Source of the DNA: a virus
Lineage: Duplodnaviria; Heunggongvirae; Uroviricota; Caudoviricetes
DNA: 64,000 nt
Strand: one strand, 5' to 3'
IMG/VR virus record: IMGVR_UViG_3300032156_000002
Coordinates: 9,023-73,022 of that record
The notes below the pieces were generated by a model that was not told the DNA's origin, made no database searches, and worked only from the letters and a program-made list of their open reading frames with translations. Each line of letters starts with the position of its first letter. Positions within the stretch are counted from its first letter, which is position 1. Below, one piece after another: positions 5,292 through 21,974 of the stretch. The position numbers and the translations under genes are program-made.

Positions 5292-5300
5292 ATCTCCTCC

Positions 5301-6398: not shown

Positions 6399-6426
6399 TG
6401 TTATCTCCTCGGCTGAATGCTCCCGC

Positions 6427-6720: not shown

Positions 6721-6741
6721 CCCGCGCTCCTCTCAGTGCCT

Positions 6742-6772
6742 AATTATACCGCCTGCGGAACAGTTTGTCAAG
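6742..6772 (-). promoter_or_regulatory. Conserved promoter, family copy 2, firing leftward.
   Basis: Reverse complement reads cTTGACAaactgttccgcaggcGGTATAATtagg. Confidence 0.5.
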
Positions 6773-7028
6773 GGACGCCACAATAGTCCCGTTTTGCGCC
6801 TTCCTTGCGGAGTTGGATGGCGCGGGTCGCGGCCAGTTCCAGCGTTTGGTGCGCAGAGTCGCGCTTCCATGCCCTGTGATAGGCGACCTGCTTTGTCACG
6901 ACCCACCACCCGTGACCGCGGACGCTTTGGGGCGGCGAGTAGGTGATGGCCACGTTCGGAAAGCCGTAGCCTACTTGGATACGGGGCAACGAGTGTCTCA
7001 GTTTCATCAGTCGTTCAATCGCTGTCAT
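6768..7028 (-). CDS. Hypothetical 86 aa protein.
   Basis: ORF track. Confidence 0.4.
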   Translation of the reverse strand: MTAIERLMKLRHSLPRIQVGYGFPNVAITYSPPQSVRGHGWWVVTKQVAYHRAWKRDSAHQTLELAATRAIQLRKEGAKRDYCGVP

Positions 7029-7347
7029 CTTCGTCCTCCTCGGTATCTTCGCAGACTGCGCCCAGCGTTGCGGCTACGCGCCGCCCGTCCTCGTTGAGTG
7101 TATACAAAATATAGTCATGCGTATTCGATTCGTATACGGTCGAGAGGTAGACCTTCATCAACAGGCGCTTGACCGTGGCCGTCCCGACCCGCTCGTTGCC
7201 TAAGTAGTAGACCCCCGCCCCGTCGGCCCACGTCAGGTCGGCCTCGTCGTTCTTGGCCAGCGCGCACAAGACCCATTTCTCCCTCGGAGTCAGGGGAACG
7301 CGCCGGAGAGCGTTTATCAATGCCATGCCTTCCTCGTAGGCGTTCAC
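7015..7347 (-). CDS. Hypothetical 110 aa protein with an acidic C-terminus.
   Basis: ORF track. Confidence 0.45.
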   Translation of the reverse strand: MNAYEEGMALINALRRVPLTPREKWVLCALAKNDEADLTWADGAGVYYLGNERVGTATVKRLLMKVYLSTVYESNTHDYILYTLNEDGRRVAATLGAVCEDTEEDEDDSD

Positions 7348-7736
7348 GTCGTGGTCTCCACGGCACTTGCCACGTCCACGATGCTATCGGCGCGCTCTGG
7401 CATGGTCTGCAACAGCAACAGGACGCTGTTCATGGTCTCCTGTACGGCCATGGGTCCAAGGCCGCGCAACGTCCTGAGCGCGGCGATGGCGCGATGTTTG
7501 AAGTCCAGAGCGCCCAGCCTCAGTGTCTCGTCCAGAGACAGCGGATTGAGCGGCGTAGTGTTGGCGAGTAGTCTCTCGCGCAGAATCGCGAGGTGGCCGA
7601 TAACCACGAGGTCCGCGTCGGCCCCCGAGCCGTGATGGCCGCGCCGCACGTTCGCTCGGTGCTGGCGGTCGGCGCGACCGATACGGCGGTCAATCAGGCG
7701 CAACAGCATCTCTACTTCCTTGGCGGTCAGTTCCAT
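7344..7736 (-). CDS. Hypothetical protein, 131 aa.
   Basis: Start at the internal MELTAKEVEM of ORF 7344..8132. The upstream part of that ORF is Arg-rich junk. Confidence 0.45.
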   Translation of the reverse strand: MELTAKEVEMLLRLIDRRIGRADRQHRANVRRGHHGSGADADLVVIGHLAILRERLLANTTPLNPLSLDETLRLGALDFKHRAIAALRTLRGLGPMAVQETMNSVLLLLQTMPERADSIVDVASAVETTT

Positions 7737-7786
7737 GGGAATCTCTCCCTCTACGAAGGACGGCGTTGCGCATCGCGCAACACAGG

Positions 7787-8290
7787 CTATGCGTGCAACG
7801 GTCCGCCACAACGCGGGCAGGTCTCTCCCCCGCAGTACGGGCAGGCGTCGTGAACATCGGCGGGCAACGGCGGCCCCGGCTTGCGTTCCCACTCGTGATG
7901 CCAGCCATCCTCGCCGGTACCGAACCGACTGTGCACGAGGAAGGCTCCCTCTTCGCGCCAGTCGCCGGACCCGAGTTTCGCGCCCGTGCTCATCTTTGCC
8001 CACACCTTGGCCAGCCAACCCTTGGCCGTGGTGCGCGGGTCGCGCACGGCGTTGTAGTAGTAGTTCGTGACCAGCCGCCAGATACTTCGCGGCCAGCCCT
8101 GAGCGGGCCGTACCGTTCCGCACTTCGGGCACAGCGGCTCATCTGCGGCCTTGTTGTCATCCTCGTCCTTCCACGGATGCGAGCACTTTGGGCACTGGCT
8201 GTAAATCTCCCAAGCCTTTGCCTCGACCCGGACCTTGCGATAGGACCCGTCGGCCAGTTTTTCAATCCCGTTCGGTAGCATCTCGGTCAT
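7787..8290 (-). CDS. Cys-rich, Zn-binding-like protein, 167 aa.
   Basis: CPKCSHPW...CPKCG...CPYCGGETCPRCGG, multiple CxxC pairs. Confidence 0.5.
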   Translation of the reverse strand: MTEMLPNGIEKLADGSYRKVRVEAKAWEIYSQCPKCSHPWKDEDDNKAADEPLCPKCGTVRPAQGWPRSIWRLVTNYYYNAVRDPRTTAKGWLAKVWAKMSTGAKLGSGDWREEGAFLVHSRFGTGEDGWHHEWERKPGPPLPADVHDACPYCGGETCPRCGGPLHA

Positions 8291-8769
8291 GGTTGGCTCC
8301 TCACGGCCTTGCGCGGACGCCGGGCCAGTCGGTCGTGGTGGAGTTCGATGGGCAGGATGGACACGCAGTAGCCCTCGTCGTTGGCTGGGTACGGTGGTCC
8401 GGCTTGGTAGTGAAGGTTCCCGCCGTAGAGTTCCTCGCTCAATTCCGTCTCCACTATCCAGTCCTCGACCTTGACCTGCGGCCTAGCCCGCAGGCACCAC
8501 CCGGCACACCACATGCTGGCCGCGGTGAGGTCGTCGGTCAGATAGTAGGCCACGTCCTCGTGCGGGTCCTCGCCAATGGCGAGGTACAGCCGCCCCGGCT
8601 TTTCGCGCGCGCGCCGGTGATAGTGCTTGGCGATGACCGCGGCGAACCCGCGTATTTCCGTCTCGTCGGGGTATCCCTGCCGCCCGGCGCGAGCGGTCTC
8701 CTGCATGTCGCGCGCCGTGCGCACAAGGTCCTTGGCCGCATTCTCAATCCAATGCGCAAACTTGGTCAT
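8287..8769 (-). CDS. Hypothetical protein, 160 aa.
   Basis: ORF track. 4 nt overlap with its neighbour. Confidence 0.5.
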   Translation of the reverse strand: MTKFAHWIENAAKDLVRTARDMQETARAGRQGYPDETEIRGFAAVIAKHYHRRAREKPGRLYLAIGEDPHEDVAYYLTDDLTAASMWCAGWCLRARPQVKVEDWIVETELSEELYGGNLHYQAGPPYPANDEGYCVSILPIELHHDRLARRPRKAVRSQP

Positions 8770-9095
8770 TGCACCACCTCCGCCTCAGGCTCAAACTCGA
8801 TGCTCCCGCCCACGGGGATTTCCGGGCGGCCCGCTTCGAGCCACTCGTCGTATGGCGTGAAGCCTTCGAGCAGACCGAAAGCGCCGTCCACGCTGTAGGC
8901 GATTTCCTTACCGACCAGCATGGCATTATCAACACAATGACCCGCTCCGATTGCGCCGGGAAACGCATCGTCCAACGAGCGCACGGTCTGACCGTTGTCG
9001 CACGGAATGGCCCGACCACTCACGAGCAGGTAGCCCAGCCCGGACCCCCACGACCCCGCAAAGCCTTCGATGGTTCCTCTGTAAACCGTAGGCAT
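8766..9095 (-). CDS. Hypothetical protein, 109 aa.
   Basis: ORF track. Confidence 0.5.
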   Translation of the reverse strand: MPTVYRGTIEGFAGSWGSGLGYLLVSGRAIPCDNGQTVRSLDDAFPGAIGAGHCVDNAMLVGKEIAYSVDGAFGLLEGFTPYDEWLEAGRPEIPVGGSIEFEPEAEVVQ

Positions 9096-9135
9096 GTCAG
9101 CCTCCCTTGCTTTGTAAACACACGAGCGCGGATTG

Positions 9136-9810
9136 TCAACATTCAGTCCACTCAGCCAGCACGGCGCGCCAAGTCACACGCGGGTCGTTTGGCTGAAGCA
9201 CGTGCTCTCTCGTGAACTCCTCGATGACCGGCTCTCCGGCCTTCTGCCACGGGCACAGTCGCATGCCATGGATGGCCGGGTGTTTATCAATCCGCCCGTC
9301 CTTGTCGAGCGTGCCGCCCTCGAAGTGGGTGATGACCATGCGATACACGTCCATGCCCTGCCACACGCCAAGGAACTCCTCGACCGCGAGCACATCGTCA
9401 GGCTTGAGGCTCCACAGGACCTCGGCGATAAGGTTGTCGGCAATACCCCGGAGGGCTTCAGCCATCTCGGTCTCCTGCTGGGCGTTGTCCTTAGCCGATT
9501 TCGCTTCGGCCTCGTATTCCCCCACCCTATCGAGTATCCGGCGCACTCGTGCCAGTCTCGGGTCAACAGCCGCGTCAGTCATTTTGGCCTCCTGATTGAC
9601 GCGCCTCCAAAAGCCCCATCTGTCCGAGTCCAAGTCATCCGACACGGTGACTCGGTCTGCTCTCCACAGCGTATTGAGTGCCTGCGAAACCGCCGCCCGC
9701 TGGCCCTTGTTGGGGCATGACACACCGTAGTGGGCGCAGGCGAGGTCAACGATTGTCACTTCGCCCTTGAGCGGGATGAGTGCCATGATGGCTGTCTGAA
9801 ACTTGGTCAT
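9136..9810 (-). CDS. Hypothetical protein, 224 aa.
   Basis: ORF track. Confidence 0.5.
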   Translation of the reverse strand: MTKFQTAIMALIPLKGEVTIVDLACAHYGVSCPNKGQRAAVSQALNTLWRADRVTVSDDLDSDRWGFWRRVNQEAKMTDAAVDPRLARVRRILDRVGEYEAEAKSAKDNAQQETEMAEALRGIADNLIAEVLWSLKPDDVLAVEEFLGVWQGMDVYRMVITHFEGGTLDKDGRIDKHPAIHGMRLCPWQKAGEPVIEEFTREHVLQPNDPRVTWRAVLAEWTEC

Positions 9811-10409
9811 TGGGGTTTCTTCCCTTCCGTCGCACGCTTCAGGTCGGCGGCCTGATGCTGGGCGCGCAAGACCTCGTGCTCGTTGATGTCCTCGATAGAC
9901 ACGTCACCTTGGGCGATGCGGGCGATGAAACTCTCGCCCATGTCCACGCCATTTATGTAGGCCGAGGACACAATCCCCTGAATGGCGTTCACCAAGGCGT
10001 TGAGTTCTGCGGCCAACGTGCGCGGCAAAACCCACTCCCGGTAGTAGGGCGTGTCGCCGTAGCGACTGTCATGGTCAACCCTTACCTTTTCGACGCCCGG
10101 AACATCCCACGTCGGCTCGTGGTCCGTCCGGCTCCCGCCAATGGCCCGGAGTAAAGCCTCGAAGGCGCGCGACAATTCCTTTTCGCTATCGCGCCGGTCG
10201 AGAGTACCGGCCTTCTGATGGGCGAAGGAATAGTCCAAGTCGGCAATCCACGTCACGACCGGGCCGGTCTCTGCCTTTTTTTCGCGTACCCGGTGGCCTA
10301 CGTCCGCGTCGTGCACGCATGGGCCGCAGACCGCCGACCGAGTGCGAGTTGGCTTGCCGCAGATGACGCACGGCACATCCTTGCGTCGGCGGGTGCTAAT
10401 GTCAGTCAT
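9807..10409 (-). CDS. Hypothetical protein, 200 aa, with an N-terminal CxxC...CxxC.
   Basis: ORF track. Confidence 0.5.
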   Translation of the reverse strand: MTDISTRRRKDVPCVICGKPTRTRSAVCGPCVHDADVGHRVREKKAETGPVVTWIADLDYSFAHQKAGTLDRRDSEKELSRAFEALLRAIGGSRTDHEPTWDVPGVEKVRVDHDSRYGDTPYYREWVLPRTLAAELNALVNAIQGIVSSAYINGVDMGESFIARIAQGDVSIEDINEHEVLRAQHQAADLKRATEGKKPQ

Positions 10410-10451
10410 TTCGGGTCCGCTCTCTTTAGGATTTTCATTGCGTCAGCCTCC

Positions 10452-10919
10452 CTATATCCAGCGATGGCGCAGGGCGTACCCGCCGTCCCTGTGCCAGTGT
10501 GTATTCACAAGGCGCTGGGTGCCGTCCTTGTCGGAAACCACGCCCTCACGCCAGCGGTTGGGCCTGAAGTCGCGGTCGCCGTTGGTGTGGTCGTTACTCG
10601 GACAGTTCTCTCCGATGCACCCAAAGCCATCCGGATAGAGCGCGCCCGCCAACCGGTAGACCGTCTCAAAGCCCATGTCCATACCGCACCCGCGCATTTT
10701 CACTCCCCAGCGGTCGCGGTCGAAGGACTCGCCGAGCGCCGTGGCGACCAAGAATGCCAGCCCGTAAGGCTCGCCGTCGCCAAACACGAGCGCGTCAATT
10801 ACCCGACTCGTGCCACTGCGCGACACGTGACGCAGAATTGTGTATACAGTGTCGCCCACCTTCACGACCTCTTGCAGTTTCTCAATCGCTTTCCTGCGCG
10901 CAATCTCTTGGGCGTTCAT
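10452..10919 (-). CDS. Hypothetical protein, 155 aa.
   Basis: ORF track. Confidence 0.5.
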   Translation of the reverse strand: MNAQEIARRKAIEKLQEVVKVGDTVYTILRHVSRSGTSRVIDALVFGDGEPYGLAFLVATALGESFDRDRWGVKMRGCGMDMGFETVYRLAGALYPDGFGCIGENCPSNDHTNGDRDFRPNRWREGVVSDKDGTQRLVNTHWHRDGGYALRHRWI

Positions 10920-10957
10920 GGTATCCCTCCTGCGGGAACCGAACTGCCGTCAACGGG

Positions 10958-11113
10958 TCAGGCTTGCCAAATCATGCGTGCCATCTCAACGCCATTCACG
11001 TCCTCGATGTGCATTGTCACCCAGCCCCGCTCGACCAACACCTCCCACTCGTGGCTGTGATACTCGACCCACTGAACCTTTGTCACCCGAACGGACCGGA
11101 CGTAGTTAGCCAT
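10958..11113 (-). CDS. Hypothetical small protein with a probable start at MANYVRSV.
   Basis: Strong AAGGAGG RBS upstream of the internal Met of ORF 10958..11173. Confidence 0.4.
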   Translation of the reverse strand: MANYVRSVRVTKVQWVEYHSHEWEVLVERGWVTMHIEDVNGVEMARMIWQA

Positions 11114-11354
11114 TGGTCGCCTCCTTGGGGTTGCACCCCTCGCACGGGAACTTCGCCTCGGGATTCGCGGCATGCCAGAAGGCGTGGCCGAGATGCCCGG
11201 CCTGCGGCTCGCGCGCGAATGCCTTGCGGAGCAGGTCCAGATACTTGCCGGTGATGTAGACCTGAATGTGACGCCCCTTGTCTGTGTTGCCTTCCGCCGA
11301 AATCATCTCGGTCGGGGTCACGGTCACGTACTCGGCGGTTGCGTATTGACTCAT
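11106..11354 (-). CDS. Hypothetical 82 aa protein.
   Basis: ORF track. Confidence 0.4.
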   Translation of the reverse strand: MSQYATAEYVTVTPTEMISAEGNTDKGRHIQVYITGKYLDLLRKAFAREPQAGHLGHAFWHAANPEAKFPCEGCNPKEATNG

Positions 11355-11869
11355 ATTGGCCTCACTCTCTCAAGGTTGTGCCAGTCCCCGTTGCGGTCGC
11401 GCCACTGGGCGCGTATGACGCAAAGTTGGGTCACGTTGCGCCACCCGCGATGCCCGCGTACCTTGCGGGCCACCTGCCGGGCGGCGTCCAAAAGCGACGT
11501 GGCCTCGACCGGGTAGTAGCCCATGAGGCTCTTGACTTTGCCGTAGTCGTGGGCGTCATTGCGGGTGCCGACCGCCACGTACTGGACATGGAACTCGCAG
11601 GTCGGCGCATTGCGCATCAGGGCGGCGCACGGCTCACAGAAGTTGTCGGGGGCCTTCATAGACAGGCGCGCCTTGGGGATGCTCGGCTCGCCCACGAGCG
11701 TGCCGTGCGTGTCGCAGACCACCGCGTATTTCTCGCCCACGTCCAAGTCCTGCGCGGCGGCCACATAGATGACCACCTTGCCCGCAGTAAACGGATTGCG
11801 GCGCTCTGCGATGTAACCCGGTTCGGTGCTGTGTTGCTTGCGTGGATGAAGCGGGTCCTTGGGTTGCAT
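11351..11869 (-). CDS. Hypothetical protein with a start at the internal MQPKDPL.
   Basis: ORF 11351..11962. The upstream 31 codons are Arg-rich and overlap the next gene. Confidence 0.45.
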   Translation of the reverse strand: MQPKDPLHPRKQHSTEPGYIAERRNPFTAGKVVIYVAAAQDLDVGEKYAVVCDTHGTLVGEPSIPKARLSMKAPDNFCEPCAALMRNAPTCEFHVQYVAVGTRNDAHDYGKVKSLMGYYPVEATSLLDAARQVARKVRGHRGWRNVTQLCVIRAQWRDRNGDWHNLERVRPI

Positions 11870-12180
11870 CAGAGCACCTCTGCCTTGCTCGCCGTCACAT
11901 GACAGAGCGGGCAGTCCGGGTGCGCGGCGGCGTCGTCGTGCCACTCGTGATTGTCGGAGCATTGCTCGGTGCGCCCCTCGTGCTTGCAGGCATTGCCGCC
12001 GCAGAACATTCCGGTGTCGCCCATGTGCATGATGGGGGCTTCGTTGTCATCGGTGTCCGGCATCTCGCCCGACTCGAATAAGTACGTGACCGCGGCGAGC
12101 GTCCGGCGGCATTCGGGGCATAGGTCGGCATAGGTCTCGGGGGCAAGAAACTTGCGTGTAGTGCTCGGGGTATTCGTCAT
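11869..12180 (-). CDS. Cys/His-rich small protein with a start at MTNTPSTT.
   Basis: ORF 11869..12231 would overlap the promoter, so the internal Met with its RBS was chosen. CPECRR...CGGNACKHE...CPLCH. Confidence 0.45.
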   Translation of the reverse strand: MTNTPSTTRKFLAPETYADLCPECRRTLAAVTYLFESGEMPDTDDNEAPIMHMGDTGMFCGGNACKHEGRTEQCSDNHEWHDDAAAHPDCPLCHVTASKAEVL

Positions 12181-12232
12181 GGAGGTCTCCCATCGGAACG
12201 CCTGTCGGCGGGCGGTGCGTGCTTCCTTCATC

Positions 12233-12264
12233 TAATATACCGCGTGCGGAACAGTTTGTCAAGC
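12233..12264 (-). promoter_or_regulatory. Conserved promoter, family copy 3, firing leftward.
   Basis: Reverse complement reads gcTTGACAaactgttccgcacgcGGTATATTag. Confidence 0.5.
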
Positions 12265-12398
12265 CTAAGTTTCGACTTCGGAGGGCGAGTGACTTCGGCC
12301 TTGGTGCCTCGCGGACTGCCTCGGGTTGCGCAATCCCTTTGGCTTCCTGTCCCCTACGGGCCAAGCGCGCGAGTTGCGCCGCTCGCCCTCCACGCTCT

Positions 12399-12428
12399 TA
12401 TTATACCACGTGCGGAACACTTGTCAAG
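12399..12428 (-). promoter_or_regulatory. Conserved promoter, family copy 4, firing leftward, in tandem with copy 3.
   Basis: Reverse complement reads cgcTTGACAagtgttccgcacgTGGTATAATaag. Confidence 0.5.
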
Positions 12429-12624
12429 CGTCAATTGCCGGGCCGCCCGCCCATACGTCGGCGCTCGCCACAGGCCCGGCGGGGGGTCCACTCGGCGCAC
12501 TTTTGCCCATCTTGCCCTGTGCGCCCCGCTCCGGCCCGGCCCGTGCCCTTCTCTGGCACACTGGGGCGCTCCTGTCCGCCCCCCAAAAGACCCAAGTTTG
12601 ACCCAAGCGCCTCCCTGCGCGCAG

Positions 12625-12660
12625 TGTCGCTACACCTGTCGCTACACCTGTCGCGACAGA
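12625..12660. repeat. Tandem 12 bp direct repeat TGTCGCTACACC, 2.5 copies, a possible regulator-binding site in the divergent control region.
   Basis: tgtcgctacacctgtcgctacacctgtcgcgacag. Confidence 0.5.
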
Positions 12661-12714
12661 CTGGAATGCGCCGGTGCTTATTCAAGCCTCGGGCCTTTCG
12701 CTGGAATATGGCGA

Positions 12715-12746
12715 TTCTTATTCATCGTTCCGCTTGTGGTAGAATA
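12715..12746 (+). promoter_or_regulatory. Rightward promoter of the gmd operon, a degenerate member of the conserved family.
   Basis: ttattcatcgttccgcttgTGGTAGAAT with an extended -10. Its spacer resembles that of the other family copies. Confidence 0.35.
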
Positions 12747-12752
12747 GGGGCC

Positions 12753-15035
12753 ATGACCACTCTGCCCCTGCCACTGGACACGCCGGACCCGCGGCCCGAG
12801 CCGCCCGAGCAATGGAGTCAATCGTCGTGGGATGGCACGTTGCCAGACCGGCCAGCGCCCGCGCTGTCGCCCTACGGCGACTTGCCGAGCGACGGGGATA
12901 TTCAATCGGGCAAGGTGGTCCGCCGCGCGCTCATCACGGGCATTACTGGGCAGGACGGCTCGTATCTGGCGGAGCAACTCGTGGCTCGCGGCTACTTTGT
13001 GTACGGCCTCGTTCGCCGCACGTCACATCCCAACTACGAAAACCTGCGCGGCATTCTCACTAACCCCGACCCTTTCGTTCGCGGCCGCCTCACGCTCATT
13101 GCGGGTGATGTGACCGACCCGGCCAGCGTAAGCGGGGCGATGTGTGCCGTCCTTCCGCATGAGGTCTACAACCTTGCGGCCATGTCGTTCGTGGGCGCGT
13201 CGTGGGCGCAAGCCCGGCTCACGTTCGACGTGAACGCCATAGGCTTTCTCAATATCCTCGAGGCGGCCAAGGCGCAGATGGAGCGAGCGCGCAGGCAGGA
13301 CTATCTCAGCCTTACGGCTATCATTCCTGACCCGCGCGTGTATCAGGCCAGCACCTCCGAGATGTTCGGAAAGACAGCGCCGCCTCAGAACGAGGACAGT
13401 CGCCTCAGCCCGCGCAGTCCCTACGGCATCGCCAAACTCGCGGCGCACATGCTGGCGCGTGTCTACCGCGAGTCGTATGGGCTGTATGTCGCGAGTGGGA
13501 TACTTTTCAACCACGAATGTATCTCCGCCAAGACGCCTCTACTCATTCGCCAAGGGGGCACAATTCGGGCGGTCACGCCGTATGACCTTGTGCCCATCAA
13601 GGACAAGAGCAAGGGCAAAGCGAAACAGACATGGGCGTTGGCCGACACGCAAATTTGGGACGGCGACCAATGGGCCGACTTGCGGCACATCACCGCGACG
13701 GCATTGCGCACAGAGGACGCCAGCCACAGAATGCTTGAAGTGAATGCGCGTGGCGGAACAGTTGACGTGACGGCGAGTCATAACATGCTTGACGCCGAGG
13801 GCAATAAGATGCCCGCAGGGGCGATTCGGCACGGAACGCCTATGCCGCGCTTGCTACTTGCTACCCATTGGCCAACACCTTCGGGATGGGCGCGTGTCTC
13901 AGATGAACTAGCGGCATTCCTTGGGTACATGGTTGCCGATGGCTACATCGAGCGAGATGGCAACAAGATTCAGTATACGAAGAACGCCCGCTCTATGCGT
14001 GGGGAGGTGGCTGATTTATGGCATCGACTCTTCGGAGGGACATCGCGTGAGTGGGAGGGGAAATCCGGCTTCTCGACCGGCGGCCCGGTGACACAACTTG
14101 CTTTGACTGGCGTACCCGCCGTGGCCGCTTGGCTACGGGAAATGCTCTACTCTGGCGACCTCAAACAGGTGCCTCCGCTCATTCTGAATGCGACCGCAAG
14201 CGCACGACGTGCATTCCTTGACGCCTATTACGCAGGCGACGGCCTCAAGGCTGGCAACGGATTGTCATTCAAGACGAATAGCCCCGTACTTGCTCTTGGC
14301 CTTATCTACCTCTATGGACTTGAGGGCAATCGCGCATCGGTCTATGTCGAGCACCGCGAGGGCAAACGCTACTACGCCGTCAACCTCCGGTCCAACGACG
14401 CCATCGGCGAAAAAGGACAACATCTCGCGAAAGACCCGGCCGAGGTCATGTCTATCGGCGACGGCGAGCCGACGAACTGGGTATTTGACCTCGAGACATC
14501 CACGGGCAAGTTCATGGCGGGGGTGGGACGGATTGTTGTGGCAAACAGTCCTCGCCGCGGCCTTGAGTTCGTGACCCGCAAGATTGCGCGAGCGATTGCA
14601 CGAATCCAAGCGGGCCGCGAGCGCACCGTCGAACTGGGGGATACATCGGCCCAGCGCGACTGGGGATACGCGCCCGAATACACGGAGGCCATGCGGCTCA
14701 TTCTGCGCCACCGCCTGCCCGAAGATTTCGTCATCGGCACCGGCCAGACCCACAGCGTGCGCGAGTTCACCATCGCGGCTTTTTCCGAGGTGGGCTGTCG
14801 CGACCCGTGGCCCTACGTGATGACGCGCGGAACGCTTATGCGCCCCGCCGAGATTCCTGTGCTTCGTGCGGATTGTCAAAAGGCGAAGCGATTGCTTGGG
14901 TGGTCGCCGCACATCCTCATGCCAGACCTTGCGGCGCTCATGGTTCGCGCCGAGATGGACGCGCTCAATGCGCAACCGTTGGACCCGTTGCGTGTTGAAC
15001 TGACCGAATCAAAGAATCTCCCGCCCATTCAGTAG
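12753..15035 (+). CDS. gmd: GDP-mannose 4,6-dehydratase interrupted by an intein. There is a roughly 50 aa N-terminal extension; a GTG start nearer ITGITGQDG is also possible.
   Basis: ITGITGQDGSYLAEQL, GDVTD, YGIAKLAAH (the YxxxK SDR motif), LFNHE|C...VVAN|SPRRGLEFVTRKI and RDWGYAPEYTEAMRL are classic GMD blocks. Confidence 0.85.
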   Translation: MTTLPLPLDTPDPRPEPPEQWSQSSWDGTLPDRPAPALSPYGDLPSDGDIQSGKVVRRALITGITGQDGSYLAEQLVARGYFVYGLVRRTSHPNYENLRGILTNPDPFVRGRLTLIAGDVTDPASVSGAMCAVLPHEVYNLAAMSFVGASWAQARLTFDVNAIGFLNILEAAKAQMERARRQDYLSLTAIIPDPRVYQASTSEMFGKTAPPQNEDSRLSPRSPYGIAKLAAHMLARVYRESYGLYVASGILFNHECISAKTPLLIRQGGTIRAVTPYDLVPIKDKSKGKAKQTWALADTQIWDGDQWADLRHITATALRTEDASHRMLEVNARGGTVDVTASHNMLDAEGNKMPAGAIRHGTPMPRLLLATHWPTPSGWARVSDELAAFLGYMVADGYIERDGNKIQYTKNARSMRGEVADLWHRLFGGTSREWEGKSGFSTGGPVTQLALTGVPAVAAWLREMLYSGDLKQVPPLILNATASARRAFLDAYYAGDGLKAGNGLSFKTNSPVLALGLIYLYGLEGNRASVYVEHREGKRYYAVNLRSNDAIGEKGQHLAKDPAEVMSIGDGEPTNWVFDLETSTGKFMAGVGRIVVANSPRRGLEFVTRKIARAIARIQAGRERTVELGDTSAQRDWGYAPEYTEAMRLILRHRLPEDFVIGTGQTHSVREFTIAAFSEVGCRDPWPYVMTRGTLMRPAEIPVLRADCQKAKRLLGWSPHILMPDLAALMVRAEMDALNAQPLDPLRVELTESKNLPPIQ
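13518..14546 (+). mobile_element. Intein of 343 aa with a LAGLIDADG homing-endonuclease domain, inserted in the gmd NHE/SPRRG active-site region.
   Basis: Begins with Cys right after LFNHE and ends in ...VVAN followed by Ser+1. Two LAGLIDADG-like motifs, LAAFLGYMVADGYIERDG and FLDAYYAGDGLKAGNG. The extein junction reconstitutes the canonical NHESPRRGE. Confidence 0.8.
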
Positions 15036-15079
15036 TCCGGCGCACGGACCCAACCGCGCCCGGCCAATCGAGAGGACCC

Positions 15080-15820
15080 ATGGACATTATCTTTCGCACT
15101 CTGCAAGGTGGCCGCCGCACCGCCGTGACGGTAGGCGGCATGCTCTGTGGCGTGGCCATACGCGGTCGGAAAGACTCGCCCAACCTGCTACTGGGCATAG
15201 CCGTTGCGATTTTCAAGGCGCGCCCCCACGGCTTTGATTCGTACACCAACCAACTCATTGATGACGAGCGCCCGCCCGTCCACCGGGCAACCCTGAGCGA
15301 GACGGGCATTGGATTCCTGATTCAACTCTGGCATCAATACCATATGGAGTTGATGGCGCAGAATCGCGCCGCGGACGAGGGCGTACACCGGCTCCTGACG
15401 GCCACCGCCCGCCTCGCGAAACTCAAGCAGAATGGGGACTGCGTTTGTGAGGCGTGTCTCGCGCAGGCTCGGGATGAAACCTCGGATGCTATGGAGATTC
15501 TCAATGCTCCTAAGCCCGGCATGACCCTGAGCGAAAAGTACGCGCGCCGCTGGTTGCGCATTACCCCTATCATCGCGTTGGACGGGCAGGCCGACGTATC
15601 CTTCTGGATGGACCGCATGGCTTTGATGCGTGGCGAACCGGACCCGGTGCATGGCGTGCGCGGCATTGCGATGGCGGCGACGAAGGCCCCCGGCATGCTG
15701 ATTTTGGATGACCCGCTCACGGCTACCGGTATTGCGGAAGGGAAGCAACCGGACACACCGCTCACGGTCGCAGAGGTAAGCGGCTACGAAGGAATAATCA
15801 ATCTCGCGGCTGAAGCATAG
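15080..15820 (+). CDS. Hypothetical protein, 246 aa.
   Basis: ORF track. Confidence 0.5.
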   Translation: MDIIFRTLQGGRRTAVTVGGMLCGVAIRGRKDSPNLLLGIAVAIFKARPHGFDSYTNQLIDDERPPVHRATLSETGIGFLIQLWHQYHMELMAQNRAADEGVHRLLTATARLAKLKQNGDCVCEACLAQARDETSDAMEILNAPKPGMTLSEKYARRWLRITPIIALDGQADVSFWMDRMALMRGEPDPVHGVRGIAMAATKAPGMLILDDPLTATGIAEGKQPDTPLTVAEVSGYEGIINLAAEA

Positions 15821-15828
15821 GAGCGCCC

Positions 15829-16584
15829 TTGAAAGTCTCCGTCATACTCACGCTGTACGGGCGCGAGGTTGCCAGCCGCCGGGCGCTCGCGTGCCTGTTG
15901 CGCCAGACGCACCCGCCCGAGCAGATTGTCATTGTGGATGACGAGAATGGGGGTTGGGCTGAGGCCGAGGTCGCCAAGGACCCGCGCCTGCTCTACTTCC
16001 CGTTCAGGCCAAGGGGCGGAGCGTGGCGCGCGTGCAACCTCGCGGTCAATGCCGCATGGCCCAGTGTCACGGGCGATTACATCATTCTCACTTGTGGCGA
16101 TATGCTTGTGCCGACGTTCGCCGTCGAGCGCCATCTTGCCGCGCAGGTGGGCGACTTGCGCACGACGCCCACCGTCTACGGACTGGACGAAAACACAACG
16201 ATGCGGCTGGGCGTGCCCGCGGAGGACGAGCAGGGGCACTGGGCCTTGCCGGATTATCAAGACTGGGTAGACCACGAAAAGTTCAACAACCTGCCGGGCT
16301 TCTGGCAGTGGCCGAGCATATCAACCGCGCCGAACGAGGGTGTACTCAAGGCGGACGGGATTTGGTATGCGTCGGCAAAGGCGTGGCGGCATCACGTGTG
16401 GTTCAGCGGCAACACGCGCGCCGGGTGGGAGTTCTTTGGCCCGCCCCTGATTCCAAGCGACGACCTCGGCGCAGACGAACTGGGCATGCACAAGAACGAA
16501 TGTGGCTATCCCGGCGGACGCCGCCCGCTCACCGACTGCGGGTACGCCATCTATCACCAGTTCCACATACCGGGTGGCCGATGA
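15829..16584 (+). CDS. GT-A fold (GT2-like) glycosyltransferase, paralog 1 of 4, with a TTG start.
   Basis: KVSVILTLYGRE...LLRQTHPPEQIVIVDDENGG resembles the GT2 N-terminal signature. Shares WxGNTREGWE and YHQWH motifs with paralogs 2-4. Confidence 0.55.
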   Translation: MKVSVILTLYGREVASRRALACLLRQTHPPEQIVIVDDENGGWAEAEVAKDPRLLYFPFRPRGGAWRACNLAVNAAWPSVTGDYIILTCGDMLVPTFAVERHLAAQVGDLRTTPTVYGLDENTTMRLGVPAEDEQGHWALPDYQDWVDHEKFNNLPGFWQWPSISTAPNEGVLKADGIWYASAKAWRHHVWFSGNTRAGWEFFGPPLIPSDDLGADELGMHKNECGYPGGRRPLTDCGYAIYHQFHIPGGR

Positions 16585-17366
16585 AAGTCAGCGTCGTCAT
16601 GGCCGCGCGCTACCGTGCGTCCTCGGGGCCGCGTTGCCTCAAAGCCGTGCTTACCCAGTCGCGTCCGCCAGACGAGATTATCATGGTCAACTGCGGCGAG
16701 AACGAATGGGCCGCCCACATCAACAGCCCGCTTGTCGCCGCGGGTGGCCACAAAGTCGCGTTCAAGTACGTGCGCTACCATCCCGCCTCGCCCACGGAAT
16801 ACGCATACACGCGCGGGGTCAACAAGGCGTGGAATCGATGCACTGGCGACTACGTGTTTATCACTCCAACCGATGCACTGGCTCCCTTTCACTGTATCGA
16901 GGCGTCGCTCGCGGTCCAGACAGGCATGCACCGCGTGTGCCATCTCGTGTATGGGCTGGATGAAGGGACCACAAGGCGTCTGGATGACCCGCTATTCCGG
17001 TGGCTGGGTACAGACTTCGAGATTTTCCATACCCTGTCCGGCTTCAGCACGTGGTGGAGGCGCGGCTGGCCGCCGCCCAACAACAGCCCCTTGCAATTGC
17101 AGTGGTGGGGCAACACAGTGTTCAGTTCTAACACGCGCGAGGGTTGGGAGCAATACTGGCCGGGGCAACCCTTCAGCGATGACACGGTTACGGGCAACGA
17201 CGAGATATGCCTGAATATGATGGAGCACGGGGTGGACGTGCCGGACCGTCCTATCAGCGCACCCACGTGGCGCGAGATTACCAAATGTCCAGTTCCGGTC
17301 TATCATCAATGGCACTTGACCCAAGCCGAGGAAGATGCGGCCCACGCTCGCAAGAGGAAAGCCTGA
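16581..17366 (+). CDS. GT-A fold glycosyltransferase, paralog 2.
   Basis: Real gene is in a different frame from the artefactual 447 aa ORF 16023..17366. MKVSVVMAARYRASSGPRCLKAVLTQSRPPDEIIMVNCGENEW. Confidence 0.6.
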   Translation: MKVSVVMAARYRASSGPRCLKAVLTQSRPPDEIIMVNCGENEWAAHINSPLVAAGGHKVAFKYVRYHPASPTEYAYTRGVNKAWNRCTGDYVFITPTDALAPFHCIEASLAVQTGMHRVCHLVYGLDEGTTRRLDDPLFRWLGTDFEIFHTLSGFSTWWRRGWPPPNNSPLQLQWWGNTVFSSNTREGWEQYWPGQPFSDDTVTGNDEICLNMMEHGVDVPDRPISAPTWREITKCPVPVYHQWHLTQAEEDAAHARKRKA

Positions 17367-17369
17367 CCC

Positions 17370-18188
17370 GTGAAGATTAGCGTTGTCATGGCCGCGCGCT
17401 ATCGCTCCGACCATGGCCCGCGCTGTCTCAAGAGCGTGCTGTGGCAGACGCGCCCGCCCCACGAGATTATCATGGTTGACTGCGGCGAGAACGAGTGGGC
17501 GGCGGATATTGGGCCGACAGTGCGAGCCTTGAACGGGTCCGAGGTTGAATTCAAGCGCCATCGTTATGCACCGGCAAGCGTATATGAGTACGCTTACACG
17601 CACGGGGTGAATGCGGCATGGCCGAGGTGCACAGGCGACTACATTTTCATCACGACAACCGACGCGCTCGCGCCTGTGCGTTGTATCGAGGCGTCAATCG
17701 CCATGCAGGTCGGCACGTCGCGCGTGTGTCATCTATGCTATGGGCTAAACCGCGCGACAACAAACCGGCTCGATGACCCCGCCTTCCGCTGGGCAGGAAC
17801 CGACATGCGCCTTTTTCATTCCCTGCCGGGATTCGAGGACTGGTGGAAAGAGGGGCCACGCTGGCCTCATCCGAACAACAGCGTAATCCAACAGGCGTAC
17901 TGGAACCACACCCTGTTCACGAGCAACACGCGCGAGGGCTGGCTCGATTCGCCAGAGTGGCCGGACCTGCCATTCCCTACCCCCGAGTTCATAGCCCGTG
18001 ATACATGGTTTCTGGCCGCCACGGACGAGCGGAGCATGGCCTACCTCGAGGAGAGCGACTCGCTAATCAGGAAGTCCGGCGTTGGGAAGCGTCCGGTCAC
18101 GAAGTGCCCCATTCCGGTCTATCATCAGTGGCATCTTGAGGTCAAAGACGAGAATCGTTTGCACGGCTGGGTCGGCCGGGAGACTTGA
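17370..18188 (+). CDS. GT-A fold glycosyltransferase, paralog 3, with a GTG start.
   Basis: MKISVVMAARYRSDHGPRCLKSVLWQTRPPHEIIMVDCGENEW, about 60% identical to paralog 2. Confidence 0.6.
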   Translation: MKISVVMAARYRSDHGPRCLKSVLWQTRPPHEIIMVDCGENEWAADIGPTVRALNGSEVEFKRHRYAPASVYEYAYTHGVNAAWPRCTGDYIFITTTDALAPVRCIEASIAMQVGTSRVCHLCYGLNRATTNRLDDPAFRWAGTDMRLFHSLPGFEDWWKEGPRWPHPNNSVIQQAYWNHTLFTSNTREGWLDSPEWPDLPFPTPEFIARDTWFLAATDERSMAYLEESDSLIRKSGVGKRPVTKCPIPVYHQWHLEVKDENRLHGWVGRET

Positions 18189-18191
18189 GAC

Positions 18192-19007
18192 ATGGATGAC
18201 ATACGCAAAATGAAAGTGTCCGTCGTAATGGTCGGGCGCTACCGCGCAGAGAATGCGCGCCGCTGTCTGGCCGCGCTCCTCTGCCAGTCGGTCGTACCCG
18301 ACGAGATTGTCATGGCCGATGACGGCGGGAACGCATGGGCGCAGGCCATGCAAAGCCCACTGCCCGGCACGGAGATTGAGTTCAAGTACCACGGGTATCG
18401 CCCGCAGGGCGGCCCAGTGCACGCCTACACGCTCGCGGTCAATGCGGCGTGGCCCAAGGTGACGGGCGACTATGTTTTCATGTGCCCGACCGACATCATC
18501 GCGCCCTATCACGGGATAGAGGCATCGCTCGCTGTACAAGAGGGAACGCACCGAGTCTGCCACATTGTCTACGGCCTGAACGAGGCGATGACCGGGATGC
18601 TGGATGACCCGGCCTTCAAGTGGCTTGGCACGGACTTCGAGATTTTCAAAACCCTCCCCGGCTGGGGCGATGTGATTGGCGCGTCCCCGTTCAACAACGC
18701 GCGCGCCCATGGCTGGTGGCATCACACAATGTTCACGTCCAACACGCGCGAGGGCTGGGAGGAGTTCTGGCCGGGCAAGCCGTTCAGCGACAGCGACCAG
18801 TACGGCAATGACGAACTCTGCCTGTTCGAGATGGAACAGGCCGTCGGGGCGGCATTCAAGGCAGAGGGCGCGACCACGCCTCGCCGTCATCTGACGAAGT
18901 GCGACCTTCCGGTTTATCACCAGTGGCACTACAAGGCGGGCGTCGAGGAGAAGATGTACCGCGGCGAGATGAGTGAGCGAGCGATGCGTGCGTTGGGAGC
19001 ATCCTAG
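18192..19007 (+). CDS. GT-A fold glycosyltransferase, paralog 4.
   Basis: MKVSVVMVGRYRAENARRCLAALLCQSVVPDEIVMADDGGNAW. Same conserved C-terminal motifs. Confidence 0.6.
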   Translation: MDDIRKMKVSVVMVGRYRAENARRCLAALLCQSVVPDEIVMADDGGNAWAQAMQSPLPGTEIEFKYHGYRPQGGPVHAYTLAVNAAWPKVTGDYVFMCPTDIIAPYHGIEASLAVQEGTHRVCHIVYGLNEAMTGMLDDPAFKWLGTDFEIFKTLPGWGDVIGASPFNNARAHGWWHHTMFTSNTREGWEEFWPGKPFSDSDQYGNDELCLFEMEQAVGAAFKAEGATTPRRHLTKCDLPVYHQWHYKAGVEEKMYRGEMSERAMRALGAS

Positions 19008-19807
19008 TGGGCAAACCCACGCCCGCGCAGGCGCGATTCCTCAAGACTATCGCGGAGTATCCGGGGAGCACGGCTGGCAAGTGGGGGTCCGACGCGCGAC
19101 TGTCGGACCCGGAGGGCGTGCGCGACCGCGACAGGCTTCCCCTCAATCTCAAGACCATGATGGTCTGCCTGCGCCTCGGCTGGCTTGACAGCGCCAAGAG
19201 CCGCACGCAGTTGGACTGGGGAGGCGGCCTGCGCACGGTCTATCGCCTGAACGACCGCGGGCGCGCGGCGATTGCGGACCTGCCGCCCGAGGCGTTTATC
19301 AATCCGAGGCGCGTGACCGCCCATACCGTCAAGGGCGAGGCTGGCCGCGTGCTGGATGCGCTCGCCTCCCGTCACCGCTGGCCCGAGTGGGTGTTCATGC
19401 CCGAGGTCAGCCTGCCCGTTCCTGTCCCTCAGGGGTCCTATAGGCCCGCACACAACAAGTCGCATCGCGTTGACGCGCTGGCCGTCAGCATCTACGAGTC
19501 GAGCGGCTACGCGCGCGTGGGTTACGAGGTCAAGGTCACGCGCGCCGATTTTCAAACTGAGATGTGCCGCCCGGAAAAGACACAGGCCAGCGCGATGTGG
19601 TGCAGTGAGTTCTACTTCGCCTGCCCCAAGGGTGTACTTGAGCCGAAGGACGTGCCCGACCCCTACGGCCTTGTGATTATCAACCCAAGGGGTAGCACGC
19701 GCCGGGTGAAGCGCAGTACAATAGAGTCGCGCCCTCCCACGTGGGGCGCAGTGGCATACCTGATTCACCGCATCGTGGACGAAACACAGGAGACCACAAA
19801 TGAGTGA
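19007..19807 (+). CDS. Hypothetical protein, 266 aa, with an N-terminal HTH-like segment and a C-terminal PD-(D/E)XK-like motif.
   Basis: VDALAVSIYE...GYEVKVTRAD fits D..E.K. Weak. Confidence 0.4.
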   Translation: MGKPTPAQARFLKTIAEYPGSTAGKWGSDARLSDPEGVRDRDRLPLNLKTMMVCLRLGWLDSAKSRTQLDWGGGLRTVYRLNDRGRAAIADLPPEAFINPRRVTAHTVKGEAGRVLDALASRHRWPEWVFMPEVSLPVPVPQGSYRPAHNKSHRVDALAVSIYESSGYARVGYEVKVTRADFQTEMCRPEKTQASAMWCSEFYFACPKGVLEPKDVPDPYGLVIINPRGSTRRVKRSTIESRPPTWGAVAYLIHRIVDETQETTNE

Positions 19808-20102
19808 CGCTACGATAGAGATAGGCAAGTCCGACATGATTGGCTCGCCGCCAGCCTTGCCCGAGCCGGTCCTCGAGAAGCACTATGCGGCAATGACATG
19901 GACCGACCGGGAGATGGACGAATTGCGCCGGACGCGGTGCCTGTGTCTGAGGTGCGACCACATGCACTTCAACGCCGCGGGCGAGCAACTCGACAATCAC
20001 TGCCCGTTCGCCGCGACGCTGTTCGCCGTGTGCAAGGCGGCGGACATGGCGACCATGATTACCCGGTGCGGCTACTACCGGCCCAAGGTCCTCGCGACTT
20101 GA
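19800..20102 (+). CDS. Hypothetical Cys-rich 100 aa protein.
   Basis: ORF track. Confidence 0.4.
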   Translation: MSDATIEIGKSDMIGSPPALPEPVLEKHYAAMTWTDREMDELRRTRCLCLRCDHMHFNAAGEQLDNHCPFAATLFAVCKAADMATMITRCGYYRPKVLAT

Positions 20103-20545
20103 CGCCCCCCACGGGCGAGGGGCCGGACCCGCCACGCAATCAATTCGGCAACAAGTTCGACCTCGCACTGAAGGCGGGCGAGGAGTTCGAGGACTTCTTC
20201 CGGGGCCTCGTAGCGAACGCAACGGTGGAGTGCAAGAAGGATTACGTTGCTCGCGAGACCGGCAACCTGTTCGTCGAGTTCGAGTGTCGGAACAAAGCAA
20301 GCGGCCTGTCCGTGACGCAAGCGGATTGGTGGGCGTTCGGAATCGTCGGGGCAGACGGCAACGTGGAGCGCATCGTGCTTGTGTCAACGTCGTGGCTGAA
20401 GCGCGAATGCCGACGCCTGTTTCGACTCGGGCGCATTGCCAAAGGCGGCGATGATGGATTGTCGCGCGGCGTTTTGCTCCCGCTCACCTCTGTCGGGCGC
20501 GAAGGGCAGTCAAACAGGGTAGGCCAACAAGAGTCTGCTCGATAA
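20099..20545 (+). CDS. Hypothetical protein with a TTG start overlapping the upstream stop.
   Basis: In frame with ORF 19898..20545, but its first 67 codons overlap the previous gene. Confidence 0.35.
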   Translation: MTPPTGEGPDPPRNQFGNKFDLALKAGEEFEDFFRGLVANATVECKKDYVARETGNLFVEFECRNKASGLSVTQADWWAFGIVGADGNVERIVLVSTSWLKRECRRLFRLGRIAKGGDDGLSRGVLLPLTSVGREGQSNRVGQQESAR

Positions 20546-20561
20546 CATCGGGGGTGTTAGC

Positions 20562-21956: not shown

Positions 21957-21974
21957 GTCATATCGCCAACACAG

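Follow-up and report, generated by a model that had tools for sequence, protein, structure and literature searches.

A LAGLIDADG endonuclease-bearing intein in a phage gmd gene and its same-site relatives in bacteria

Introduction

Inteins are catalogued overwhelmingly in proteins of replication, recombination and repair and in phage terminases. The locus analyzed here raises the question of whether an endonuclease-bearing intein resides in a phage nucleotide-sugar dehydratase, and whether it would still splice and move. The gene lies in a 64,000-nucleotide stretch of a tailed-phage record from IMG/VR (the window, to which all positions refer). A preliminary description had proposed a LAGLIDADG-carrying intein in the GDP-mannose 4,6-dehydratase (Gmd) of this phage, a reading now supported by the predicted fold, the conserved residues and the presence or absence of the element in a related phage.

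The phage context of the locus is given by the genes of the terminase large subunit (46583-48172, PHROG E = 3.6e-82) and the portal protein (48340-50766). The best matches of the terminase, only 34-38% identical, belong to Acetobacter, Bradyrhizobium and Acinetobacter phages. Nucleotide searches of the GenBank phages returned a single match, 119 bp long, in a faecal-metagenome phage record that lacks annotation (the gene as query, distant mode) and no match at all (the first 25 kb, near mode), so the phage is without a sequenced close relative among the GenBank phages.

Results

Organization of the interrupted gmd gene

The open reading frame occupies positions 12753..15035 of the plus strand, encodes 760 amino acids plus a stop codon from an ATG at 12753, and is nested in a longer stop-to-stop frame starting at 12219. 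The same 760-residue product was found in public gene calls from two independent assemblies, with which the window agrees at 99.95% identity over 8.2 kb and at 100% over 3.65 kb; since the identical sequence occurs in both, the insert is no assembly artefact. The start codon is uncertain: the ATG at 12753 gives a proline-rich leader of 57 residues, present also in a homologue (P0091), while the start annotated for the closest homologue (P0090) aligns with a TTG at 12882.

The N-extein (255 residues, 12753..13517, plus strand) ends in GILFNHE at 13517 and is followed by the insert of 343 residues, or 1029 bp (13518..14546, plus strand), which begins with Cys1 and ends with Asn343. The C-extein (162 residues plus stop, 14547..15035, plus strand) opens with the nucleophile Ser+1, encoded by AGT at 14547-14549 and followed by PRRGLEFVTRKI, within the stretch SPRRGLEFVTRKI (SPRRGLEF). 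The canonical Gmd flanks, the boundary residues and the two LAGLIDADG blocks reported in the preliminary description are thus all confirmed at their positions, far beyond chance expectation.

Both the Rossmann motif GxxGxxG of extended SDR proteins and the GMD catalytic signature [ST]SE...Yx3K (PMC8987622) were found in the extein, as GITGQDG (12939-12959), STSEMFG (within 13350-13370) and SPYGIAK (within 13416-13436). With the insert present, Pfam GDP_Man_Dehyd matches in two parts, broken at profile position 186, and upon removal of the insert a single match is obtained (positions 1-330 of 332, E = 5.1e-104), which bears out the earlier claim that excision restores the Gmd block. The spliced extein aligns contiguously across the junction to the solved GMD structures 1n7g and 1rpn (E about 2e-80), and the extein aligns to 6gpj as well (E about 1e-80). 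The placement of the insert in the "active-site region" is approximate: it interrupts the conserved NHE/SPRRG motif 25 residues past the catalytic Lys, while the TSE and YxxxK elements lie wholly in the N-extein. For the NHE/SPRRG motif, the review of nucleotide-sugar dehydratases gives no residue-level role (PMC8987622). The NCBIfam equivalog model TIGR01472 ("gmd") scored the spliced sequence at 319.5 bits, below its cutoff of 415. The phage extein is thus a diverged member of the Gmd family, so that GDP-mannose is its putative substrate, for which conversion to GDP-4-keto-6-deoxymannose is predicted.

Fold and conserved residues of the insert

The AF2 model of the insert (pLDDT 90.8, pTM 0.91) predicts an intein fold, its splicing domain adopting the Hint (horseshoe) fold, and was matched by Foldseek to the TliVMA intein (E = 5e-20), PI-PkoII, PI-PfuI and PI-SceI. 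The sequence aligns with the TliVMA intein over blocks B, F and G (profile E = 7e-13). The features of class-1 inteins are present, namely Cys1 as the block A nucleophile (TGT, 13518..13520), which is the sole cysteine of the intein; a TxxH block B, T85-A-S-H88 (13770..13781), aligned to that of TliVMA; block F, WVFDLET (14478..14498), with Asp324 aligned to the block F Asp of TliVMA; block G, AGVGRIVVAN (14517..14546), with the terminal Asn343; and Ser+1. In a 19-sequence family alignment C1, T85, H88, D141, D241, D324 and N343 are invariant.

Two histidines that usually assist asparagine cyclisation were not found. The usual position of the F-block His, an assisting residue that is not universal among inteins, is occupied by Gly330 (14505-14507), and it is Gly in 19 of the 19 aligned gmd inteins. 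At the penultimate position, Ala342 stands in for the usual His (Ala342-Asn343 being encoded by GCA-AAC, with the AAC at 14544-14546), a residue unseen among 72 relatives with resolvable junctions, in which this position holds His (46), Ser (25) or Lys (1). In the search for Hint blocks called for earlier, blocks A and B, the F-block Asp and the terminal Asn are in place, and the histidines of blocks F and G are missing. At E up to 10 the phage insert was matched by none of the Pfam and NCBIfam intein models (PF14890 Intein_splicing; N- and C-terminal models). Six of the 19 family members matched PF14890, weakly (best E = 0.0027), and an artificial mini-intein, with a linker in place of the endonuclease, gave no NCBIfam matches. 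Assignment to the bacterial intein-like (BIL) domains was considered and rejected in view of the nested endonuclease, the terminal Asn with a +1 nucleophile and the precise restoration of the host protein. A methyltransferase gene of the window (20562-21956), whose product contains a long insertion not represented in the Pfam model, was examined as a second intein and discarded, as it carries no intein hallmarks.

Between the splicing blocks, two stretches of the insert match Pfam LAGLIDADG_3 (E = 5.9e-10; 39.7 bits against a cutoff of 22.5). Motif 1, LAAFLGYMVADGYI (13908..13949), contains MVADG with the catalytic Asp141, and motif 2, AFLDAYYAGDGLK (14211..14249), contains YAGDG with the catalytic Asp241; Gly142, Gly242 and Lys244 are likewise invariant. 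From this curated profile and from the fold, in which the endonuclease domain is modelled at high confidence, the insert is predicted to carry a monomeric two-motif LAGLIDADG homing endonuclease.

An empty site in a sibling phage

A sibling phage contig (L087) is collinear with positions 2225-22219 of the window, including three consecutive GT2-like glycosyltransferase genes downstream of gmd (15829..18188, plus strand in the window). The alignment breaks exactly at 13517/14547, the sibling lacking precisely the 1029 bp of the intein. Its Gmd (P0090), 80% identical to the extein, reads uninterrupted through the junction LFNHESPRRGLEF (NHESPRRGLEF), and its empty-site DNA is TTCAACCACGAA/AGCCCCCGCCGTGGC, also written GGCATTTTGTTCAACCACGAA/AGCCCCCGCCGTGGCCTCGAA, with the slash at the insertion point. 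Such presence/absence polymorphism at a conserved target is a signature of homing, and among 75 alleles the target-site DNA is strongly conserved.

The composition of the intein differs from that of its host, as its GC3 is 0.66 vs 0.759 +/- 0.034 in the phage genes, which suggests foreign origin and recent acquisition. Toward its bacterial counterparts the intein is about as similar (about 49% identity) as the extein (about 50%), while a regression over the family predicts 43% for the intein, and intein identity equals or exceeds extein identity in only 2% of pairs. As family inteins are normally much more diverged than their exteins, this may be read as a signal of horizontal transfer. No clear co-conversion tract was detected, the sliding-window nucleotide identity to the empty-site allele being flat at the junction, with neither dip nor peak. 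The only hint of such a tract is post hoc and weak: the 21 nt 5' of the junction contain the codons GGG-ATA-CTT, as in the consensus of bacterial intein-bearing genes and unlike both empty phage alleles.

The extein evolves at a dN/dS of about 0.17 relative to the intein-less sibling allele, which does indicate constraint. Lineage-specific amino-acid changes number 22 in the intein-bearing extein and 12 in the sibling (p = 0.086); this is no significant acceleration and leans only slightly, and not significantly, toward relaxed constraint. The notion that the intein implies strong purifying selection on gmd has to be reworded: the presence of an intein implies nothing of the kind, and it is the dN/dS value that speaks for constraint.

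A same-site intein family in gmd

Homologous inteins occupy the same NHE/SP site of gmd in at least 203 bacterial species genomes of GTDB, mostly Solirubrobacterales, and the carriers are described as soil-bacterial genomes, in the hundreds. In a search with the intein only, 89 of the 89 protein clusters found were Gmd, one of them, at 100% identity, being the phage's own, which leaves 88 further metagenomic clusters. Four IMG/VR viral contigs also carry the element; scanning IMG/VR with a single sequence brought up no relative, and these were recovered with an alignment-based query. The junction NHE/[C/S]...N/SP was found in all 72 loci with resolvable junctions, which were drawn from 80 kept of the 203 GTDB hits plus the viral loci. 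Ser1 replaces Cys1 in one bacterial subclade, some gmd genes of the family hold two inteins, and one member (P0051) has an insert of only 217 residues, suggesting that loss of the endonuclease domain happens in the family. At E <= 1e-30 the intein profile matched 137 representative protein clusters (50% identity); among those listed, Gmd-sized proteins form the majority and the others are larger, PolB for instance.

None of the 50,697 GenBank phage records holds a gmd intein, and tblastn of the intein against them gave distant endonuclease-domain matches only; the best one, LR756508, was dismissed as a PolB intein, ending in VVHN/TDS. The element is therefore unusual, as had been stated, with respect to the literature and to cultured phages; it is not unusual in sequence space, given the bacterial genomes, metagenomic clusters and viral contigs just enumerated. 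The part of the preliminary description that the data back best is its alternative suggestion, that the phage gene and gmd alleles of bacteria have a conserved target in common.

In a neighbour-joining tree the phage intein falls outside the bacterial cluster and groups with the other viral copies. The four viral copies, this one included, branch deepest in the family and are its most diverse members, and the bacterial ones form a shallow crown that spans at least six phyla (Actinomycetota, Myxococcota, Planctomycetota, Acidobacteriota, Chloroflexota and Armatimonadota).

Comparison with known inteins

The nearest relatives are the same-site gmd inteins of Solirubrobacterales, other MAGs, Beggiatoa sp. 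PS, Thiospirillum jenense and the four IMG/VR contigs, all with the identical insertion point GILFNHE/SPRRG. They share with the phage copy a length of about 340 residues, the architecture and the conserved catalytic positions at 31-53% identity. The phage copy differs from them in that none is closer than about 53%, in that its terminal Asn is preceded by Ala where they have His, Ser or Lys, and in residing in a diverged Gmd about 50% identical to the bacterial exteins. The database entries of these proteins are labelled only GDP-mannose 4,6-dehydratase. A full-length endonuclease-containing gmd intein has been mentioned, as a lineage-specific insertion, in Thermosynechococcus sp. TA-1 / CL-1 (PMC9403480); compared by its description, it resides in a bacterial gmd like members of the family, in a cyanobacterium and not a phage. 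The archaeal LAGLIDADG inteins PI-PkoII (PolB, 2cw7/2cw8), TliVMA/PhoVMA (7qsu/7qst) and PI-PfuI (1dq3) are 12-22% identical to the phage intein, occupy other host proteins and sites, and keep the block F or G His that it lacks. Judged by the description of its host, an intein of the euryarchaeal UDP-glucose/GDP-mannose dehydrogenase (UDP-GlcDH, COG1004; Novikova et al., 2016, PMC4760082) likewise interrupts an enzyme of nucleotide sugars and not a protein of DNA metabolism, though this dehydrogenase belongs to another enzyme family than the SDR dehydratase Gmd.

Discussion

We consider it probable that the 1029-bp insert is a class-1 Hint-fold intein with a nested double-motif LAGLIDADG endonuclease, which entered the phage gmd by homing at the NHE/SPRRG-coding site, and we infer that it both splices and cleaves DNA. 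On this reading gmd would be translated as the 760-residue precursor, in which Cys1 would form a thioester with Glu255 of the N-extein. Attack by Ser+1 on this Cys1-Glu255 thioester, cyclisation of Asn343 with release of the intein and an O-to-N shift would then yield a contiguous Gmd of 417 residues (374 if translation starts at TTG 12882), which may feed the phage glycosyltransferases encoded downstream. The freed endonuclease would cut intein-less gmd alleles at the reconstituted site, and repair from the intein-bearing copy would spread the element.

The atypical terminus of the intein bears on whether the precursor is spliced at all. The element could be a true intein by descent in which Ala342, found in none of the 72 resolvable relatives, and Gly330 at the position of the F-block His slow or block asparagine cyclisation, so that gmd would be inactivated or strongly reduced and the insert would persist only through recent arrival. 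Since gmd is an accessory gene in the phage, a non-splicing insertion is not necessarily lethal, and since the low GC3 suggests recent arrival, the intact frame is only weak evidence for selection on the intein; the 22 against 12 lineage-specific changes fit such impairment as well. Nevertheless, the nucleophiles, T85, H88 and D324 are all intact, the difference in changes is not significant beside the low dN/dS of the extein, and the 25 relatives with penultimate Ser combine it with the same F-block Gly and are maintained in numerous species genomes, where no other gmd was seen at the locus. Functional inteins devoid of the penultimate His exist, as the Ssp and Npu DnaE split inteins are efficient and end in Ala-Asn and Ser-Asn. 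Impaired splicing appears accordingly unlikely to us. The same atypical block G could give slow or condition-dependent splicing, and a precursor whose catalytic N-domain is separated by the intein from its C-terminal domain would presumably be inactive, so the intein might have been co-opted to gate Gmd activity, and with it phage glycan synthesis, post-translationally upon a cellular cue. This is very improbable: the intein has no second Cys for a redox trap, the sibling phage does without the element, and the sequence bears no sign of regulation.

Mobility is a separate matter. Decayed endonucleases are common among inteins, and the 217-residue insert mentioned above suggests such loss within the family, so that a splicing-competent intein with an inactive endonuclease, fixed, vertically inherited and no longer mobile, has to be weighed. 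Against it stand the invariance of both LAGLIDADG Asp residues and of Lys244 across the family, the confidently modelled endonuclease domain, the GC3 not yet ameliorated, and the empty site in the closest phage relative, an indication that the element was gained once the two phages had diverged or that gain and loss still alternate in cycles; we regard this inactivity as rather doubtful, and prefer an intein that is still capable of homing. As for a lineage-specific insertion domain of Gmd other than an intein, or an assembly chimera, the failure of the Pfam and NCBIfam intein models to match is the one point in their favour, and both are effectively refuted by the results obtained.

The case thus presents an endonuclease-bearing intein in a phage nucleotide-sugar dehydratase, for which the empty-site sibling genome makes homing experimentally testable, and whose natural Ala-Asn terminus, combined with the lack of the F-block His, offers a useful test case for the catalysis of asparagine cyclisation. 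It also exposes a large same-site family of gmd inteins, members of which are missed by curated intein models; annotation pipelines will mis-size the intein-bearing Gmd proteins, and surveys based on Pfam or NCBIfam will under-count them. The current understanding of inteins is unchanged by this finding, the phage intein being a real and fairly ordinary member of a widespread, largely unannotated family. We advance, tentatively and as a rather unlikely proposal, that phage-borne gmd genes serve as a reservoir and shuttle of the gmd intein. If this were true, the near-universal NHE/SPRRG-coding site would allow an accessory phage gene to carry a selfish element from one bacterial chromosome to another, unrelated one, providing a concrete route of cross-phylum intein spread via a metabolic rather than a replication gene.

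The interrupted gmd gene and its empty-site counterpart

The window is phage DNA, carrying genes for a terminase large subunit (46583-48172; PHROG E 3.6e-82) and a portal protein (48340-50766). Nucleotide search of the GenBank phages (50,697 records) gave no match beyond one 119-bp fragment. Two independent public assemblies matched the window (99.95% over 8.2 kb and 100% over 3.65 kb), both with an identical 760-aa gene call, and an assembly artefact was rejected on these grounds. This gene, the gmd precursor ORF, occupies 12753-15035 of the plus strand, beginning with an ATG and closing with the stop codon; the stop-to-stop frame around it is longer. Its N-extein of 255 aa (12753-13517, plus strand) ends with ...ASGILFNHE and is followed by an insert of 343 aa (13518-14546, plus strand), which starts with the codon TGT (Cys) and terminates with GCA-AAC (Ala-Asn); the C-extein opens with AGT (Ser) and continues with PRRGLEFVTRKI. 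The span, terminal residues, Ser+1 and two LAGLIDADG blocks reported in the preliminary description were confirmed in every detail.

Deletion of the insert restores Gmd, as had been claimed: the Pfam profile GDP_Man_Dehyd matched the unspliced ORF in two pieces, with the break at profile position 186, and the joined exteins in one stretch (1-330/332, E 5.1e-104). Search with the spliced extein revealed a 371-aa Gmd (P0090), uninterrupted and 80% identical over the full length, encoded on a 33-kb contig of a sibling phage (L087). This contig is collinear with window positions 2225-22219 at 65-84% nucleotide identity, the leftward small-ORF block, the divergent intergenic region, gmd and the downstream glycosyltransferases being common to both. 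The blastn alignment ends at 13517 and restarts at 14547, which correspond to the adjacent L087 bases 10627 and 10628; therefore, the sibling phage has an empty site, ...TTCAACCACGAA|AGCCCCCGCCGTGGC..., at which our phage carries exactly 1029 extra bases. P0091, an intein-less relative at a greater distance (59% identity), has the identical reading across the site.

The extein retains GITGQDG together with the T-S-E and Y-x3-K residues that form the catalytic signature of GMD (PMC8987622), and its alignment with solved GMDs runs end to end across the insertion point (E about 1e-80). Its NCBIfam equivalog score (319.5) is below the cutoff of 415, so the extein represents a diverged Gmd. All catalytic residues lie within the N-extein; the intein interrupts the conserved NHE|SPRRG motif, 25 residues past the catalytic Lys, on the border of the C-terminal domain. 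The proposed placement in the active-site region thus holds for the neighborhood and the conserved motif, but not for the catalytic residues themselves. We infer that an unspliced precursor would be inactive. Purifying selection acts on the gmd family in these phages: dN/dS of the extein against the empty-site sibling was 0.17 (at dS of 0.88, near saturation). The relative-rate test with P0091 as an outgroup gave 22 vs 12 lineage-specific changes (p = 0.086), and there was no significant sign of pseudogene decay in the intein-bearing gmd. The purifying selection suggested earlier finds support in direct measurement, not in the presence of the intein.

Genomic surroundings

At the gmd start, TGGTAGAAT (12735-12755, plus strand) forms an extended -10-like element ending 7 nt before the ATG; therefore, the gmd mRNA could be leaderless. 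No good Shine-Dalgarno spacing was evident upstream of this ATG. The divergent intergenic region upstream of gmd (790 bp) contains two promoter-like sites on the minus strand (12400-12427 and 12234-12262), both directed leftward, one with the perfect sigma-70 consensus TTGACA-16-(TG)TATAAT and the other matching it at 11/12 positions. Such a match, striking in a 62% GC genome, may help host inference. The ORF adjoining gmd on the 3' side (15080-15820, plus strand; L087:11156-12109) is conserved in both sibling phages and matched no Pfam family. Among the ORFs scanned around gmd (10218-21956), none was recognisable as a 4-reductase, epimerase or aminotransferase that could act on the Gmd product. 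Two N6/N4 DNA methyltransferase genes are present on the plus strand (20562-21956 and 26347-27018); a second intein was considered in the former, where an insert of ~200 aa is absent from the Pfam model, and was rejected as intein hallmarks are lacking. The only tRNA in the window, tRNA-Ile (GAT) at 38693-38777 (plus strand), is unusually long for its kind (about 85 nt). Directly past the portal region, the plus strand encodes two proteins that are probably large virion-associated or ejected effectors: one of 1939 aa (51886-57705), bearing a 2H-phosphoesterase/LigT-like domain at its N-terminus, and one of 638 aa (57690-59606), in which a Zeta-toxin kinase domain (Pfam E 7e-27) lies at the C-terminus.

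Identity and predicted activity of the insert

Pfam LAGLIDADG_3 matched the insert in two stretches (E 5.9e-10, 39.7 bits vs cutoff 22.5), and its PDB sequence matches were the endonuclease domains of the archaeal TliVMA intein and PI-PkoII; the Pfam and NCBIfam intein-splicing models gave no match. Taken alone, the sequence of the insert would thus identify only an endonuclease. As the splicing domain was missed by these searches, relatives were collected: an intein-only search yielded 89 protein clusters, 89/89 being Gmd, and the one at 100% identity being the phage's own protein. In the alignment of 19 complete inteins (A1), the invariant residues are Cys1, Thr85 and His88 of the block B TxxH, Asp141-Gly142 and Asp241-Gly242 of the two LAGLIDADG motifs as well as Lys244, Asp324 of block F, and Asn343. 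The AlphaFold2 model built on A1 was confident (pLDDT 90.8, pTM 0.91), and its top Foldseek matches in PDB were full-length endonuclease-bearing inteins, TliVMA (E 5e-20) followed by PhoVMA, PI-PkoII, PI-PfuI and PI-SceI. The A1 profile also matched the TliVMA sequence (E 7e-13), the paired elements being blocks B, F and G and the two LAGLIDADG motifs. Together with the empty site of L087, these data support the original interpretation: the insert is almost certainly a genuine intein that arrived by homing.

The canonical blocks comprise Cys/Ser/Thr in A, Thr and His in B, Asp and His in F, and a penultimate His with a terminal Asn in G (PMC7765530). The proposed block search succeeded for blocks B, F and G and for Cys1, but not for the curated models, the F-block His or the penultimate His. 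All canonical class-1 splicing residues are found (Cys1, T85/H88, D324, Asn343, Ser+1), whereas the assisting F-block His is replaced by Gly in 19/19 aligned family members, including this one. The penultimate residue is Ala here; among relatives (72 loci with parsed junctions) it is His in 46, Ser in 25 and Lys in one. Since the Ser-Asn terminus is kept across many bacterial species, the family tolerates losing the penultimate His. Two efficient DnaE split inteins, Ssp and Npu, end in Ala-Asn and Ser-Asn. The intein likely splices, and its endonuclease, with both catalytic Asp intact, is probably still active.

In a Solirubrobacteraceae subclade (L006, L008-L011, L016, L017 and other loci), Cys1 is replaced by Ser1, and all these inteins (16/16) have the penultimate Ser (S...SN|S), found overall in 25/72; this pairing of the two intein ends may reflect co-variation. 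The same-site intein of P0051 has just 217 aa and is apparently a natural mini-intein which lost most of its endonuclease domain.

Distribution of gmd inteins

An alignment-based scan with one genome per GTDB species detected relatives of the intein in 203 genomes. The best 80 of the 203 were analyzed, the bulk of them being Solirubrobacterales and Thermoleophilia MAGs, alongside some Myxococcales, Planctomycetota, Pyrinomonadaceae, Armatimonas and Chloroflexota. The insertion point was the same, NHE|[C/S]...N|SP, in 72/72 loci with parsable junctions, and the data bear out the suggested alternative, a conserved target shared with bacterial gmd alleles. In IMG/VR, four viral contigs carry a same-site intein, 31-46% identical to ours. 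One of them (L001; IMGVR_UViG_3300014205_000240) contains two inteins in its gmd (8300-11479), followed by a GDP-fucose-synthase-like ORF (11476-12417). Two-intein gmd was also observed in the proteins P0230 and P0313, the second insertion site being YNLAAQ|S...VVHN|SHVRVSF besides NHE|SPRRG.

None of the 50,697 GenBank phage records had a same-site gmd intein; the only match over most of its length (25% identity) was an intein of a family-B DNA polymerase fragment in a 484-kb uncultured phage (LR756508.1; L089:1318-3183), ending with ...VVHN|TDS. Database names of the intein-bearing proteins are only 'GDP-mannose 4,6-dehydratase' or 'NAD-dependent epimerase/dehydratase'. A single mention of a gmd intein was found in the searchable literature, for Thermosynechococcus sp. 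TA-1 and CL-1 (PMC9403480); a 2016 census counts UDP-glucose/GDP-mannose dehydrogenase among the hosts of inteins, and its main text contains no mention of GDP-mannose dehydratase (PMC4760082). The label 'unusual', given at the outset to an intein in gmd, fits the literature and cultured phages; in MAGs and metagenomes, such inteins are common.

History of the element

The composition of the intein is foreign and not ameliorated: its GC3 is 0.659 (0.628 in the endonuclease part), compared with 0.771 and 0.736 in the exteins and 0.759 +/- 0.034 in phage genes (mean of 19). Against bacterial intein-bearing alleles, the intein is 47-53% and its extein 45-53% identical. Within the family, inteins normally diverge far more than their exteins do (mean identity 60% vs 78%; of 500 pairs, just 2% have intein identity at least equal to extein identity), and the intein identity expected from regression is 43% where the exteins share 50%; the modest excess seen here fits acquisition independent of the extein. 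Midpoint-rooted neighbour-joining placed the four viral inteins on long branches at the base of the tree, with a crown of bacterial copies, a topology subject to a bacterial sample biased to best matches and to long-branch and rooting uncertainty.

Sliding-window comparison with the empty allele detected no clear co-conversion tract. Within 21 nt 5' of the junction, our phage differs from L087 at four positions, and at all four it agrees with the consensus of bacterial intein-bearing alleles (GGG ATA CTT); GGC ATT TTR is common to both empty phage alleles. The phage uses ATA, CTT and GGG at 13%, 14% and 19% within their respective codon families. This match, a post hoc observation, is suggestive of a co-conversion trace.

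Elements of this kind are known; the member residing in phage gmd is new. The analysis brings to light a large gmd intein family missed by curated models. The copy in this phage offers a natural Ala-Asn terminus on a background lacking the F-block His, and the phage and its empty-site sibling make up a testable homing pair.
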